A DNA stretch of 10,687 nucleotides. Origin: a virus. Lineage: Duplodnaviria; Heunggongvirae; Uroviricota; Caudoviricetes. Both the position numbers and the translations under genes were made by a program. Each line of letters opens with the position of its first letter. Position 1 is the first letter of the stretch. The DNA is taken from the IMG/VR virus record IMGVR_UViG_2740892444_000005, positions 1 to 10,687 of that record; one strand, written 5' to 3'. Below, one piece after another: positions 909 through 6,678 of the stretch. Under the pieces are notes generated by a model. That model saw only the letters and a program-made list of their open reading frames with translations. It ran no database searches and was not told where the DNA came from.

Positions 909-1955
909 TTATGCTAGAGTTGAATATTCTCCATTTCCTCGGTCGGTGAGTGTTAATTCGCGGCCATTTTCTGTAAATGTAATGGCATCCAGCAGGCTTT
1001 TTCCTGTTACAGCTATACCATATCCAAGGTTATCAATCTTTGAACTGTCCTCAGATGATATTGGTATTTGTACAAGCATACCAACAACAAAGCCGTATTT
1101 GTTAATTATAGGGCCACCGCTATTCCCCCCCTTAACCCTAGCATTGAATAATAAAAAGTCTTGTGAATCTAAGTAAGAGTGACCAGAACCAACAATTCGC
1201 CCCTTTGACAGTCGGACAAACGAATTTATATGCGAAACGTCATATAACTTTAATGCATCAAATCCTGGAATGGGTGGAAATCCTATTGATAAAATTTCAT
1301 CCAGTACCGAGGCTTTGGTTGAGACCTTAAGTGGTTGAATATTATCTTCCTTCGGAATGGTTGTGAAAACTAAAGCGATATCAATACGTTCATCGTTAGA
1401 TACAAAGATTTTATGTATTGGTAAAGCCTCACCACCAGCTCTAAGTATCCTGATACTCTTCATGTCTTCAATAACATGTCTGGCTGTAAATATCGTGTGG
1501 TTATTCCCAACAATAAAACTAGTACCAAGATCATGTGAACCATCACTTTTTTCAACAACAACAGGTAAAACGGAAGGACTAAGGCGGTCTATGATTGACT
1601 CAAATCCATCAGCTATAAAATCATACTTTCCATATTTCGCATCTGATTCATTGAAATTCGGTGCGAAATAGCAACGGTCAAAAAGAGTATGTCCTGAAGA
1701 CAATTCCATTAAAATACCTTCAGTTGCTAGCTTTTCACAATTGCGTATTAACTTCATCATATCGAGAGTATTTTCCCACTCAGGTTTGAGACGGGTCAGG
1801 CTCTCAATTGTTTTTCTCTCTTTTACGTTATCGTTTTCCGGTTTGTCATAAAAATATTTCACTATTTCTGTTGGTGTTACATATGTTTTTTTTATAGTCA
1901 TTTTTGTACCCGCGATGACGTTATTCCATATATTTTTCTTTGTAGAAAATATCAC
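909..1955 (-). CDS. trypsin-like (S1/PA-clan) serine protease with uncharacterised ~135-aa N-terminal domain; no obvious signal peptide
   Basis: 348-aa ORF. The catalytic triad is in canonical order and context: His160 in TARHVIED, Asp192 in DIALVF, Ser279 in GGNSGGP (codons at nt ~1119-1121 on the minus strand). The N-terminus is not hydrophobic, so the protein is probably cytoplasmic. The start at 1955 is GTG; an alternative ATG lies at 1901 (M19). Neither has a strong Shine-Dalgarno sequence. The gene is AT-rich. Confidence 0.8.
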   Translation of the reverse strand: MIFSTKKNIWNNVIAGTKMTIKKTYVTPTEIVKYFYDKPENDNVKERKTIESLTRLKPEWENTLDMMKLIRNCEKLATEGILMELSSGHTLFDRCYFAPNFNESDAKYGKYDFIADGFESIIDRLSPSVLPVVVEKSDGSHDLGTSFIVGNNHTIFTARHVIEDMKSIRILRAGGEALPIHKIFVSNDERIDIALVFTTIPKEDNIQPLKVSTKASVLDEILSIGFPPIPGFDALKLYDVSHINSFVRLSKGRIVGSGHSYLDSQDFLLFNARVKGGNSGGPIINKYGFVVGMLVQIPISSEDSSKIDNLGYGIAVTGKSLLDAITFTENGRELTLTDRGNGEYSTLA

Positions 1956-2361
1956 TATTGCTGGTAAATGTTAAGTTCAGTGCTCGCACTAAAGCTGGAT
2001 GATCAACGTCGCCCTCGTATGGAAATCAGGTAAGATTCATGTCTACTTGGGGTCTAGGGTAGACAGCATAAAAACGTACGATAGCGTTCGATTGGCTCTC
2101 ACCCCCGCCTATAAACCATGAGGTTGATAGGGTAGTATCGTTAGGCAATAGTATACATGTAAGTATCCAACCTAATTGGTCTTGAGATTTCTAACTAACG
2201 TGTCGTTATGTCCGCTTTTGGCACATAGCAGTCCTAGAGACAGTGTCGTAAAGTCATGTAGGATCGGTGGGAGGAGGTAAAAATCCTCTCATACAAAAAT
2301 ACGTAAAATCGATAACGGCTGGAGATCATTCAATACTCGCCCTATCGAAAGCTCACCAGCC

Positions 2362-2397
2362 AGCCGCAACACGTTCTTACATATGACGTGTCTGCGG
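2362..2397. repeat. imperfect-palindrome hairpin element, copy A (paired with copy B at 4832-4867)
   Basis: AGCCGCAACACGTTCTTACATATGACGTGTCTGCGG matches 4832-4867 at 30 of 36 positions. It folds as CCGCA-ACACGTT / AACGTG-TGCGG with a 1-nt bulge. Weaker similarity extends into both flanks (ACCA..GCC upstream, TC.AA.C downstream). Confidence 0.6.
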
Positions 2398-2410
2398 TTT
2401 CAACTCCACC

Positions 2411-2447
2411 AGCCCACCAATCATGATTGGGCTTTTTCGTTTTTCTT
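2411..2447 (+). terminator. putative intrinsic terminator (GC-rich hairpin followed by T-tracts)
   Basis: AGCCCACCAATCATGATTGGGCT (stem AGCCCA/TGGGCT) is followed directly by TTTTTCGTTTTTCTT. The T-run follows the hairpin only on the plus strand. No plus-strand ORF lies upstream of it. Confidence 0.55.
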
Positions 2448-2574
2448 CACCTGCAAGCAAACCGTTGTATCATGGCGGAATGAAGATGAGCTAGGAATAA
2501 TCTTACGAATCAGCTCAATATTCATATAAAAACATTTCGAACTTTGGTGTACAAAACTACATAGGGATAACTTT

Positions 2575-3777
2575 ATGTCTCTTCGTTTCAGACAAACCTT
2601 TACTCTATTTCCTGGCGTTCGACTCAACATTGGCAAGCGTGGAATAAGTGCAAGCATTGGCGTGCCTGGCGCAACTGTCAATGTTGGTAAAAAAGGGGTT
2701 AGAGCAACTGTCGGATTACCGGGCACAGGCTTATCTTATACTACACCTACCTTGCCCTATGATGATGGATACTCAGTTACCAATCCATTAAATCCAGCCC
2801 CTACAGAACCTCATTTGGGGTCTGGGTCATCTCCAGAAAATACACCATCGAACGCTAAAATATATATGCCTGTAGCTGGCATGAATGAAATATCCAGCGC
2901 TTCGGTAGAAGTCCTTACAAGTACCTCCCTTTTACCTTTACGAGATTTGATTGCTAAAGCACGAGAACAAAGAGCAGAAATAAAAGCAGATCTTCAAGAG
3001 GCTCTTGCCGAAGAATCAAAACAAAAAAGCGAGCTGGCTCGACGCAAATCAAGTCTATTCCGTTGGTTTTACAAACGACGCATCGCAGAACTTGAGACAC
3101 TACTCCCCCTAACCCAAGCTGAGATATCTCGCCTAGTTTCATGGGAAGACAGCACAAAAATAGCCATAACATTCGAGAGCAGTGATGCTTCACAGCGCGC
3201 ATATGCAGCGATGGTCCATGCATTTGATATGTTAAAATCGAGTGTCAAAAAATGGGATATTACTGCAGATAAAGCTACAGACCAGTTTGCTGAAAGAACA
3301 TTAGCAACCCGGTCTGTTAATCGTCACCCAGTTACCTTTGATTTTAGTTCAACGGATCTCATTCAATTTACAGGGCGTGCGATGAGGTTTGAAAATGTGA
3401 ATGGAGACGATATTTTGCTTTATCCTGGAGTTGCAGTCATACCACGAGCTGATGGAGCATTCGCTCTGATTGATTTACGCGAATTACAAATTAATTCAGA
3501 ATATCTAAGATTCCATGAGGAAGAAGGTGTTCCCAGTGACTCACGCATAGATGGTTATACATGGGCGAAAACGAATAAGAATGGCTCACCAGACCGTCGT
3601 TTTAAAGATAACTACCAAATCCCTATTTGCATTTATGGAAATATTACTTTCCATTCTCAAACAGGGGTAACTGAAGAATATATGGTATCAAATGCAGATG
3701 CCGCGCACGCCTTTGCTGAGGCAGTAAAACGTTATCAGATTTCACTCACAGAAACAGAAGCGTTGGTACAGGCCTGA
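2575..3777 (+). CDS. DUF4236-type protein (N-terminal Gly/Lys/Arg-rich DUF4236-like module, P/S/T-rich linker, predicted coiled coil, uncharacterised C-terminal domain)
   Basis: 400-aa ORF with ATG at 2575 and RBS AGGGA at 2563-2567. The N-terminus RFRQTFTLFPGVRLNIGKRGISASIGVPGATVNVGKKGVRATVGLPGTGLSY matches my recollection of the DUF4236 signature. A low-complexity linker (PTLPYDDGYSVTNPLNPAPTEPHLGSGSSPENTPSN) and a charged helical segment (AKAREQRAEIKADLQEALAEESKQKSELARRK) follow. I cannot assign the C-terminal ~200 aa. The gene is AT-rich. Confidence 0.85.
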   Translation: MSLRFRQTFTLFPGVRLNIGKRGISASIGVPGATVNVGKKGVRATVGLPGTGLSYTTPTLPYDDGYSVTNPLNPAPTEPHLGSGSSPENTPSNAKIYMPVAGMNEISSASVEVLTSTSLLPLRDLIAKAREQRAEIKADLQEALAEESKQKSELARRKSSLFRWFYKRRIAELETLLPLTQAEISRLVSWEDSTKIAITFESSDASQRAYAAMVHAFDMLKSSVKKWDITADKATDQFAERTLATRSVNRHPVTFDFSSTDLIQFTGRAMRFENVNGDDILLYPGVAVIPRADGAFALIDLRELQINSEYLRFHEEEGVPSDSRIDGYTWAKTNKNGSPDRRFKDNYQIPICIYGNITFHSQTGVTEEYMVSNADAAHAFAEAVKRYQISLTETEALVQA

Positions 3778-3836
3778 TTTATCGCCGATATGGGGACGAA
3801 TCGTAGGTTAAAACCCCCTAGAACAAAAAAAACCTT

Positions 3837-3864
3837 AAGAACCAGACTATTATGGCTGGTTCTT
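3837..3864. other. perfect 9-bp-stem hairpin between the two cassette genes (possible terminator/attenuator)
   Basis: AAGAACCAG-(10 nt loop)-CTGGTTCTT. It lies 60 nt after the stop of the 2575-3777 gene and is preceded by an A8 tract (3823-3830). That gives a T8 run after the hairpin on the minus strand, with a 4-nt spacer. There is no clean T-run after it on the plus strand, so orientation and function are ambiguous. Confidence 0.3.
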
Positions 3865-3881
3865 GTACGGAGGATTTGTTA

Positions 3882-3908
3882 TTGTACAACTCTTCTATCT
3901 GGTATATT
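3882..3908 (+). promoter_or_regulatory. candidate sigma70 promoter with extended -10 for the DUF2971 gene
   Basis: -35-like TTGTAC (3882-3887), a 15-bp spacer (short), TG at 3900-3901 and -10 TATATT (3903-3908), i.e. TGgTATATT. It lies ~80 nt upstream of the ATG at 3991. Motif match only. Confidence 0.3.
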
Positions 3909-3990
3909 TACGGATAGAACTGTTCAGGCTACTCAATCCTTTTTAAGTACAAATGAACAGATAGAAATAGTTATATTGCAAGGAGCTATC

Positions 3991-4779
3991 ATGCACACTG
4001 AGTATATATGGCGATACCTTGACATAGAGAAATTCTCTATGTTACTCGAACAAAATGCTTTATTTTTTTGCTCAGCAAAAAATTTTGAAGATCCGTTCGA
4101 AGGTGAATTTGCTTGGGGACATACTGGCTATAAAAAATTCATTGAGACACAGGAAAAACTATGCGCTACTTATGGTGCCGGCATGGACTTAGATCCTTTC
4201 ATGGCATTCAATTTAAAGACACTTAAGGAAATAAGCGAGAGGACATATATAAGTTGCTGGCATTGTAACGAACATGAATCTGAAGCTATGTGGAAGCTGT
4301 ATTGTAAAAACCCCGCTAAAGGCGTTGTCATAAAATCAAAGAAAAAAAACCTCCAAAGCCAACTTGAAAATAATAATCTAAACAAACTACAATTAAAACA
4401 CGTAAAATACGTCAAAAATTTCTGGATAAAACAATACAATCCAGAATCAGATGTATTCTTTAACAAGAGACCATCTTTCGAATACGAAAAAGAGTTTAGA
4501 GCTATTTTTCAAGAGAATACCTTTAACACTCCACCTGTAAAGGGAAAACTAGTCCCTGTATCTCTTAATAATCTGTTGGAAGAAATAAGGATTTCACCTT
4601 TCGCAGATAAGGATTTCAAAAATGAAGTTTTACAAATTTCAAAAAAACATGGACTAGATCTGAAAGTCAAAAACTCTGAAATTGAAATGCATCCCATCAT
4701 GCATGTTGAGGAAGAAATAATTGCAGAAGGCCCCAATTGGTATCAGTCAAAAATCAGATTGGCAATACGTGATGCTTAA
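3991..4779 (+). CDS. DUF2971-type protein
   Basis: 262-aa product starting at the ATG at 3991, which is preceded by AGGAG (3981-3985). The ORF-track start at 3790 is rejected because it has no RBS and the extension spans the hairpin. The family hallmarks as I recall them are present: YIWRYLDIEKFSMLLEQNALFFCSAKNFEDPFEGEF, CWHCNEHESEAMWKLYCKNPAKGVVIK and FEYEKEFRAIF. The gene is AT-rich. Confidence 0.85.
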   Translation: MHTEYIWRYLDIEKFSMLLEQNALFFCSAKNFEDPFEGEFAWGHTGYKKFIETQEKLCATYGAGMDLDPFMAFNLKTLKEISERTYISCWHCNEHESEAMWKLYCKNPAKGVVIKSKKKNLQSQLENNNLNKLQLKHVKYVKNFWIKQYNPESDVFFNKRPSFEYEKEFRAIFQENTFNTPPVKGKLVPVSLNNLLEEIRISPFADKDFKNEVLQISKKHGLDLKVKNSEIEMHPIMHVEEEIIAEGPNWYQSKIRLAIRDA

Positions 4780-4882: not shown

Positions 4883-5467
4883 TTACTCCATAACAGGGAC
4901 AGCAGGCCACTCAATATCAGGTGCAGTTGATGTATCAACACGGTTCAGCAACACCCGATACTTCTTCCAGGCTTCCAGCAACGAGTTTTCTTCCTCCGTT
5001 GCGATCTCCAGATCTACAGCATCCTGAAGTGGCGCAATATGCTCACTGGCTACCTGCATCAGGCTGTTTTTTGTTTCTTCCGCCTCCCGGATCCGGAACA
5101 GTTTTTCTGCTTCCGTATCCTTCACCCAGGCTGTGCCGTTCCACTTCTGAAACTCCCCTTCCGGCGATAACCAGGTAACATTTTCCGGTAACGGACCGAG
5201 TTCAGAAATAAATAACGCGTCGCCGGAAGCCACGTCATAAACCGTTTTACCCCGATGGTCTTCAACGAGATGCCACGATGCCTCATCACTGTTGAAAACA
5301 GCCACAAAGCCAGCAGGAATATCTGGTGGTGCAATATCGGTACTGTTTGCTGGCAGACCTGTATGAGGCGGAATATATGCGTCACCTTCACCAATAAATT
5401 CATTAGTCCCGACCAGCAGATTATAAATTTTTATGGTCCGTGGTTGTTCACTCATTCTGAATGCCAT
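4883..5467 (-). CDS. tfa: tail fiber assembly protein (lambda Tfa-like)
   Basis: 194-aa product, [18 protein letters not shown]...EWPAVPVME, is near-identical in length and sequence to lambda Tfa as I recall it. Its start overlaps the upstream stf stop (TAATG on the minus strand at 5465-5469). Confidence 0.9.
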
Positions 5468-6678
5468 TATGCAAGCCTCACAATATAGTTAAATGCGATG
5501 TTTTTGACGGTGTTTTCCGCATTACCAGCAGCGTTAACGGTGATGGTGTGTCCATGTGAACCAATCGCAACGGAGTGCGTATGAGCACCAATACCGACAG
5601 TATGCGCGTGTGCACCTGCAGATGCTGCTGTGCCGGACAGTGAGTGGCTATGATTACCATCTGTACTGGTATTAGCTAACCACCCCGTAGACATACCTAC
5701 TGAGCCTTGTACACCCCAGGTATTTTGACCTGAGCTTGTATAACCATATTGATAAGTATCTTTAAAAACACTGGGGTTAAATCGACGGCCATCTCTATGG
5801 CTGTGATTACCAGCTGCATTCGTGCTGCCACTTAAACTATGAGTATGCGCACCAGTGTTATTCGTGGATTTAGTGCCGTAATCAAACGATGATGTGGTTT
5901 TCGTACCCAAATCCGTACTGGATACGCTGGCGCTGTGGGTGTGCGATTTAATGCCGTCCTGTTCCTGAGACAATACGGCACGACCACTGGCGGGCTTGCC
6001 CTTAATCGTCCAGCCACGCATATCAGGGATCACGCCTGACGGATAAGCGGCTGCAAGTTTCGGGTAAGCAGATTTGTCAAAAGTCTGCCCCTGCATCAGG
6101 GCATAACCAGACGGAACGGTATCTGATGGCCACGGGATTGGTGCGCCGACTGGGTAGCTTTCTGGTGGAAGATTTTTCGAGGTATAAACTTCTGCCCAGT
6201 CTTCCTCAAAACCATAACCGTCTCTTGAAGAACGGTAGAACAGACCACCATTTCTGTAATGCGCCTTCATCTGCAGGGTCCGGCAACTTCCGACTCCGGT
6301 ATAGAAGTTAACCAGAATATAGCTGTCGCCAGAGCGGGTGACATTGTAAGCGCCTGATTCGGCATTCCAGGGAACGCCACCATCCGCATCGGCATATGTA
6401 TCCGTTGCCCTTCTGGCAAAAGCAGCCACATGCGCGGCGGTTATCCAGATTAACCAAATCCTTGTTGTTGGGGAATAACTAGGTCCACCTCGCCTGATGT
6501 GGCTAAAAGCAGGCACATAACAGCTAAGTATTTTCAACCAGAGAGAATCCTTAGCGTTGTGGTGAATGCGGCTCAGCGCACGCGGGTTAAGGTTGAGGCT
6601 GACAGTCGACCTTCTGTGGATACCCACCCGCCTGGTGTGCAACCTTCGCCAGGCACCGGGAGGCACCCGGCACCACAA
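5467..6678 (-). pseudogene. stf: side tail fiber protein remnant (C-terminal portion only, 5'-truncated)
   Basis: The C-terminal ~320 aa match the lambda Stf / StfR-type C-terminus as I recall it ([31 protein letters not shown]...[25 protein letters not shown]...[27 protein letters not shown]), including the periodic His-rich motifs (GAHTHS, GNHSHS, GAHAHT, GSHGHT). The N-terminal ~85 aa of the ORF (nt ~6420-6678) read as non-protein-like sequence, and no plausible start or upstream stf body is present. Full-length Stf is far longer. Confidence 0.8.

Follow-up and report, generated by a model that had tools for sequence, protein, structure and literature searches.

The apparently orphan terminator at 2411-2447 of the window, i.e. 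of the whole stretch of 10,687 nucleotides that was analysed, is very probably the decayed end of an E. coli ssrA (tmRNA) gene together with a remnant of the ssrA terminator, left as an old integration scar in a prophage cargo region. By alignment to related loci, the noncoding gap in which it lies is a mosaic of three unrelated blocks (1902-2207, 2208-2398 and 2394-2447) and not a single unit, and no dedicated RNA gene is needed to explain its sequence. This ssrA scar, with its deletion-derived hairpin next to a module of the lambdoid b region, is a further instance of an already known feature type.

Setting and layout of the noncoding gap

The window is E. coli chromosomal DNA, and the megablast query was 100% identical to strain CP66-6_Sichuan and to 14 other complete genomes. 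According to its annotation, the CP66-6_Sichuan locus (L001) is a thrW-linked patchwork of prophage and satellite remnants. On the left side it carries P4-like delta and psu genes, a reverse transcriptase and an integrase split by IS3; in the middle follow two small genes and the S1 peptidase (all on the minus strand), the gap under study and the DUF4236 and DUF2971 genes (plus strand); the right end holds tail-fibre assembly remnants, a second integrase and tRNA-Thr. The part upstream of the peptidase (L001 5310-11316) is a P4-like satellite remnant (delta/ogr, psu, IS3-split integrase), with a reverse-transcriptase gene pair in its psu-int hotspot. Within the window, Pfam placed a tail-fibre assembly gene and a tail-fibre gene convergent on the DUF4236/DUF2971 cassette (Table 1). 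The only match of the window at Rfam gathering level was IS009 (RF02111, 227 bits) at 4926-5124 on the minus strand; as it lies wholly inside the tail-fibre assembly gene, this 'RNA family' match is one to prophage coding sequence.

Table 1. Coordinates of the features in and around the noncoding gap, numbered along the window
Feature	Position	Strand	Evidence or remark
S1 (trypsin-like) peptidase gene, divergent left neighbour	909-1901	-	RefSeq annotation of the identical locus L001; Pfam Trypsin_2, E=1.7e-17
Block 1, accompanies the peptidase gene	1902-2207		holds hairpin 2041-2064 and promoter-like site 2124-2152
Block 2, noncoding prophage module (~190 nt)	2208-2398	+	megablast, phage matches, alignments; no conserved ORF
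ssrA 3' end relic	2394-2419	+	alignment to ssrA 336-363: 2 mismatches, two deletions of 1 nt
Relic parts: GCGGT (T-stem 5'), TTCAACT (T-loop), ACCA	T-loop 2399-2405; ACCA 2416-2419	+	
Relic middle: decayed T-stem 3' strand and acceptor strand, CC-ACCAGC-CC	between 2405 and 2416	+	
Native ssrA trailer, first 11 nt (ATCATGATTGG)	2420-2430	+	then ~135-nt deletion
Hairpin and T-tract	2411-2416 / 2428-2433, to 2447	+	5' arm from ssrA acceptor strand; 3' arm and T-tract from the 3' half of the old ssrA terminator
Promoter-like site TTCACC-16-TATCAT, between terminator and DUF4236 start	2446-2473	+	consensus scan 9/12, chance-level alone
DUF4236 protein gene, first cassette gene	2575-3777	+	Pfam DUF4236, E=3e-21; annotation
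DUF2971 protein gene, second cassette gene	4039-4779	+	Pfam DUF2971; PADLOC PDC-S31, E=2.6e-20; L001 annotation
Tail-fibre assembly gene	4883-5467	-	Pfam Caudo_TAP; convergent on cassette
Tail-fibre gene	5467-6678	-	Pfam Collar, gp37_C; convergent on cassette

The initial annotation described an ORF-free stretch reaching up to the protease start. The gap is indeed real, although the annotated peptidase start lies at 1901 and not at 1955, so that the noncoding gap comprises 1902-2574 (673 nt). Its lack of any sizeable plus-strand ORF could be verified, as between the peptidase and DUF4236 there are only frames of 40 aa (1999-2121) and 48 aa (2383-2529).

By its conservation, Block 1 belongs to the peptidase gene. 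It is 100% identical in the window, L001, L002, L031, L039 and L042 and 99.7% identical in L026, and when the window is compared to L002, identity falls to about 88% exactly at 2208. After the identical Block 1, the sister loci carry a different module allele (about 88% identical) with variable ends, namely a full ssrA trailer in the case of L002 and no ssrA part in the case of L042. Blocks 1 and 2 were found together by megablast in only 15-27 of 5426 complete E. coli genomes. A hairpin proposed at 2041-2064 exists in Block 1 (-10.6 kcal/mol on folding). In the case of the promoter suggested near 2124, the consensus scan gave a match of only 9/12 (TTGATA-17-AATAGT, 2124-2152), and 26 such sites were present against a chance expectation of 22.4, which does not set it apart from background. 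The transcript that had been envisaged, an sRNA or leader running from this promoter to the terminator at 2447, could likewise not be upheld: the putative promoter and the terminator stand on different mosaic blocks, no Rfam or ARAGORN gene was detected and covariation is weak.

ssrA-locus DNA at 2399-2447

The alignments show that 2399-2447 is ssrA-locus DNA, consisting of the ssrA end from the T-loop to the CCA, the start of the trailer and then the 3' half of the terminator with its T-tract, and that the ssrA T-loop is where it meets the noncoding prophage module. Important insight can be gained from sister copies, which retain an intact ssrA end of 23-28 nt and the full trailer. The ssrA 3' end is kept at 28/28 positions in L002 and at 27/28 in L003, compared to two deletions and two mismatches in the window; the Rfam tmRNA model gave a local T-arm match in L002, limited to model positions 347-363. 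In L002 and L003, the 155-190 nt after the CCA are 90-92% identical to the sequence beside ypjA in 4170 of the 5426 genomes. With a chimeric query, this sequence was found directly after ssrA in 3223 of the 5426, where it ends in the ssrA terminator AAAGCCCACAGATGTGGGCTTTTTCG. Because of this contiguity with ssrA, the sequence after the CCA is identified as the native ssrA trailer. The match of trailer and terminator is specific to the ssrA locus, a point on which the assigned origin depends.

Pairwise alignment describes the window as the L003 type minus a single contiguous gap of about 135 nt, with CCACCAATCATGATTGG retained before the gap and GGGCTTTTTCGTT following it. The same was obtained against L051, in which the native ssrA terminator tail is identical to GGGCTTTTTCGTT. 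The ssrA part of the window reads CTCC-ACCAGC-CCACCA and carries CCAGCCCACCA, the delta-T357 form of the displaced chromosomal ssrA fragment; the T missing here accounts for one of the two 1-nt deletions. Delta-T357 is known from the displaced ssrA fragment at the right junction of CP4-57 (PMC10107115).

The window shares several properties with this CP4-57 junction of E. coli K-12 and with Islander-type 'tDNA fragments'. Besides the delta-T357 form, these include identity to the 3' part of ssrA from a known integrase sublocation (T-stem/T-loop), where the breakpoint lies, to the CCA, and a flank that continues directly as native ssrA-locus DNA, seen in the trailer and, in the case of L023, in an ssrA-int junction (99.5% identity). 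Unlike the CP4-57 junction, the scar of the window lies away from the ssrA locus, inside a thrW-linked prophage remnant (in other strains it is icd-linked or in other prophages), and it has the trailer deletion of about 135 nt, a decayed T-stem and no adjoining cognate integrase.

A functional tmRNA is defined by a full tRNA-like domain (5' GGGGCUG with CAGCUCC, including the G3-U pair), a tag frame and pseudoknots, and by its detection with ARAGORN or Rfam. The copy in the window lacks U357 and has a broken T-stem. A complete or permuted tmRNA gene was also considered and rejected, with ARAGORN giving 0 genes in the window and in L002-L005, and the tmRNA_permuted model reaching 21 bits against a cut-off of 47 bits. 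The ssrA-derived part has decayed differently in L014, L018, L035, L050 and the window, and this independent decay across copies implies that it is not under selection.

As reported initially, a hairpin followed by a T-tract is present on the plus strand, where AGCCCA (2411-2416) pairs with TGGGCT (2428-2433) and is followed by TTTTTCGTTTTTCTT to 2447. Thus, a G+C-rich stem-loop with an immediate U-tract (U5CGU5) lies on the transcribed strand, as in rho-independent terminators, although it is weaker than the GC-rich terminator first described. In detail, it consists of a 6-bp stem with 4 G-C pairs and an 11-nt loop, with an energy of -8.1 kcal/mol compared to -17.4 kcal/mol for the native ssrA terminator. 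As many as 14 of 200 shuffles fold as well, and the hairpin, being outside the loop limit of the consensus scan, was not called by it. The window retains the 3' stem half and T-tract of the native terminator (TGGGCTTTTTCGTT) in the same orientation after the ssrA end; unlike the native terminator, it has lost the original 5' stem half along with the trailer, and its new 5' arm is the acceptor strand. The present hairpin therefore owes its formation to base pairing between AGCCCA of the ssrA acceptor strand and TGGGCT, which has survived from the old terminator. A genuine ssrA terminator can be aligned with the 3' stem half and the T-tract, and by this homology hairpin and T-tract are more than a chance occurrence.

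The dispersed module and its junction at the T-loop

Block 2 is probably an attP or attR arm adjoining the crossover. By megablast, it has matches in 423 of 5426 complete E. coli genomes, mainly to the 3' half of the queried region, and 200 phage records match the module, mostly of lambdoid and Stx phages. In the case of phage lambda (L007, NC_001416), the unannotated intergenic segment between ea31 and ea47 in the b region (24162-24350, minus strand) is about 80% identical to window 2208-2398 over some 190 nt, in the same orientation relative to cargo and tail-fibre genes. Unlike the window, lambda has no ssrA-derived sequence after the module, no T-tract and no annotated feature there. The lambda record holds an unexplained misc_recomb at 24389^24390, 39 nt from the 5' edge of the module.

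Neighbours of the module include pinE, tail-fibre assembly genes, restriction-modification genes, a displaced icd fragment (e14-like prophages) and the DUF4236 cassette. The 3' end of the module faces cargo and then convergent tail-fibre, tfa or pin genes in the annotated contexts that were examined, and its 5' flanks are unrelated across more than 10 contexts. Because these 5' flanks differ completely between copies, no promoter is conserved with the module. Both edges are sharp in many contexts, which would equally be expected under selection on a functional unit. Shortened copies are common, and divergence is low, with copies being 76-100% identical. In O157:H7 PV15-279 (L006, 3883-3983), the 3' half of the module lies between a dinI-like gene and a tail-fibre assembly pseudogene, and the prophage that bears it sits directly after ssrA.

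A protein-coding remnant was rejected for the module, as no reading frame stays open through the copies and clear codon periodicity is absent. In some genomes, PGAP places short 'capsid protein' or 'hypothetical' pseudo-ORFs over it. On the minus strand, RefSeq has a 44-aa 'hypothetical protein' (WP_001297180.1) over module and ssrA scar (window 2327-2461, L005 6120-6254), and 'capsid protein' or 'nucleocapsid protein' pseudo-fragments are annotated over the same DNA elsewhere; these minus-strand calls are probably spurious calls on noncoding DNA. An origin of the module as a diverged part of the ssrA body was not accepted either, since the local alignments gave two conflicting registers, to ssrA 266-328 (19/300 shuffles as good) and to ssrA 43-104 (1/300), as judged with mononucleotide shuffles on an A-rich sequence. 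Exact lambda sequence was also seen in unrelated assemblies (L052-L145; Pseudomonas, Enterococcus, Paenibacillus, Vibrio, Chromatium and MAGs), often on contigs of about 48 kb or below 1 kb, and is most likely spike-in or control contamination. A scan of genome contigs with a 16-base pattern, which was too short, gave 94 loci; the 20 that were checked were all lambda contamination or chance matches (2 by chance).

The homology of the module stops within a few bases of the ssrA T-loop position; this holds for lambda, pinE-type copies, phi458 and at least three further classes. The IMG/VR contig L023 shares its module allele with L012, and in it a second genuine ssrA-locus haplotype follows at the identical T-loop point. 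This haplotype comprises an ssrA end, a different terminator and a P4-type integrase, and many genomes have real ssrA-int junctions that match it at 99.5% identity. The attachment of one module to two ssrA haplotypes at a single point is a signature of site-specific integration into the ssrA T-loop. The junction of L023 (2066-3673), with module, ssrA end and P4-type integrase, is absent from the complete E. coli genomes in the collection; it looks as if an element carrying the module had its true right junction here, within a tandem array at ssrA. In general, islands are known to rebuild the tRNA or tmRNA gene that they have split, leaving a displaced fragment behind, and T-stem sites form the largest class (PMC4383910). 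An apparently intact present-day prophage integrated at the ssrA T-loop is found in UMNK88 (L146, 4697-6190), where the order is integrase, an arm of about 135 nt, T-loop, ssrA 3' end, trailer and ypjA. About 10 other genomes have the same displaced ssrA fragment starting at the T-arm.

Seven loci have C-terminal integrase remnants on the same strand as the module, at 1.3-1.8 kb upstream of it; in L004 the distance is 4.5 kb. Within the module there are direct repeats CGTAAAGTC and CGTAAAATC, 55 bp apart, and a related word, GAAATCAT, is also present. In these respects the module resembles the attP arms of tyrosine integrases (lambda P/P' and the integrase-proximal arm of UMNK88), which are AT-rich stretches of about 135-190 bp beside the crossover with short direct repeats, placed between the integrase (here its remnants) and the core. 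Unlike the UMNK88 arm or lambda attP, it has no homology to either in sequence and no adjacent integrase, and its role as an arm is putative. The possibility that the module is the very arm of the UMNK88 ssrA phage was rejected, as nhmmer found no homology and only two short words are shared. With a chimeric query, the module was found at the native ssrA-ypjA junction in 0 of 5426 genomes, and no module locus contains ypjA sequence. In the phage record search, no record covers both the module and the ssrA end, and the complete predicted site (integrase, module, T-loop and ssrA end at the ssrA locus) was found in none of the searched phage and genome collections.

We infer that the module is a former attachment-site arm of a phage that used the ssrA T-loop. 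In the proposed mechanism, an ancestral temperate phage would have integrated at this T-loop by a tyrosine integrase. Its attachment site would have consisted of the module as one arm, the T-loop as the crossover and the ssrA 3' end with trailer and terminator, the phage-borne copies of the latter being needed for rebuilding a working tmRNA gene. Later, the integration module would have been replaced and the attachment site would have decayed. Module and scar may then have persisted beside the tail-fibre genes as an anchor of homology that separates two cargo slots with exchangeable content; here these would be the slots of the S1 peptidase on one side and of DUF4236/DUF2971 on the other.

Alternative readings and implications

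A small RNA was the function first suspected in this gap, and in its strongest form the module of about 190 nt, with or without the terminator at 2411-2447, would be a prophage sRNA gene or a processed noncoding RNA, whose tRNA-like end acts as a processing or stability element. We consider this quite improbable. Like prophage sRNAs with Rho-independent terminators, the gap is free of ORFs and has hairpins and a closing hairpin with T-tract on one strand, but it differs from them in lacking a conserved promoter and a family match, in its weak covariation and in its variable 3' ends. Concerning the structure, the plus strand of 2205-2447 folds at -73.9 kcal/mol (z = -4.3), yet the minus strand folds about as well (z = -3.2). 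The helix GGGAGGA/TCCTCTC passes through G-C, G-U and A-U states, a clean compensatory change from C-G to U-A is seen at one pair of the hairpin at 2361-2397, and none of 500 shuffles reaches the covariation score. Against this, the RNAalifold consensus of 20 distinct module copies (211 columns) amounts to only -21.4 kcal/mol; its covariation term is -0.9, and it has 1 compensatory pair. The minimum free energy structure of the window is paired in 82.2% of cells compared to 81.3% in shuffles, with many pairs broken in most sequences; its 6 pairs with changes on both sides were reached by 24 of 500 shuffles. The hairpin GAGGA/TCCTC, pointed out initially, does exist (about 2267-2292, -12.9 kcal/mol), but it varies mostly via G-U pairs and is weakened in one common allele. 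A covariance-model search returned no Rfam match to the module, even at E<10. A sigma-54 or sigma-70 promoter inside the module was looked for by eye and by scan and rejected, and with the 5' flanks being unrelated, none is conserved outside it. Retention of the module with sharp edges in some 420 E. coli genomes and in 200 phage records would suit an RNA gene, whereas many copies are shortened and their 3' ends vary (short terminator in the window, full trailer, pinE, and lambda without T-tract). Furthermore, lambda derivatives lacking ea47-ea59 grow and lysogenise (PMC9674246), and this deletion entails loss of the module too; no report of an sRNA from the lambda b region was found in the literature. 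A broader alternative, still unlikely, is that the module is a noncoding element with a so far unrecognised function in lambdoid, e14-like and Stx prophages, with the ssrA scar being only a historical neighbour. As RNA, it could be a structured part of a leftward b-region transcript; as DNA, it could be a former attP arm that is now a fixed anchor for exchanging cargo or defence cassettes on both sides.

Two further readings concern the scar itself. The hairpin, T-tract and preceding structure could form a regulatory 5' leader of the DUF4236/DUF2971 cassette, similar to an attenuator or riboswitch, which we regard as very unlikely. They do have the orientation of the cassette and lie about 130 nt upstream of its start, and 123 genomes show 95-100% conservation of the segment 2380-2600, the match being covered by a DUF4236 annotation in 24 of 25 listed records. 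This conservation is, however, that of the cassette itself and offers no informative variation. Module and scar also precede unrelated cargo, i.e. a restriction enzyme (L003), a BRO-N gene on the opposite strand (L002) and an integrase (L023); the promoter-like site lies downstream and not upstream of the T-tract; Rfam gave no riboswitch family match; and the sequence is fully explained as ssrA-locus DNA. Least credible of all is that 2399-2405 is a still-active attachment site (attP, attL or attR), at which an integrase moves the cassette or a prophage today. The T-loop core with its flanking GCGG half-site, the direct repeats within the module and the integrase genes elsewhere in the locus would fit such a site. 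The right half of the core is nevertheless damaged by two 1-nt deletions and a mismatch in the T-stem/acceptor strand, and no cognate integrase adjoins it, the nearest integrases being the IS3-split P4-type gene and that on the thrW side. No partner copy of the core was found, and none flanks the cassette in the window. The reading as a decayed integration scar of ssrA is thus preferred over these alternatives.

An insulating role had also been put forward for the terminator, and conservation with the cassette had been proposed as a check. Here the outcome differs by segment: 2380-2600 is kept with the cassette in the 123 genomes mentioned, but the whole stretch occurs in only 15-27 of 5426 genomes. 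The promoter-like site at 2446-2473 is within the segment conserved with the cassette. From this conservation and the position of the site after the T-tract, the relic, with its hairpin and T-tract, may act as a weak insulator that stops plus-strand read-through before the DUF4236 cassette. Such an effect is plausible and would be a by-product of the origin of the sequence as an ssrA scar.

Regarding the cargo, the pair of DUF4236 and DUF2971 (2575-4779) matches the PADLOC candidate system PDC-S31 via DUF2971 only. The S1 peptidase (909-1901, minus strand) is a stand-alone protein with a protease domain that is common to the RT-protease, LmuA and HamA models. The genes in the two cargo slots flanking the module may be defence genes.

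In conclusion, a false sRNA candidate has been removed, and the case illustrates that an apparently orphan terminator can descend, by way of an integration scar, from a tRNA or tmRNA gene. Scar and module mark the boundary between two exchangeable cargo slots beside prophage tail-fibre genes, and this boundary is helpful for delimiting cassettes, among them DUF4236/DUF2971 (PADLOC candidate PDC-S31) and the S1 peptidase. The homology to lambda and the module as a cargo-slot boundary are side points worth retaining: the presence of the module between ea31 and ea47 of lambda suggests descent of part of the lambda b region from a phage with an attachment site at the ssrA T-loop.
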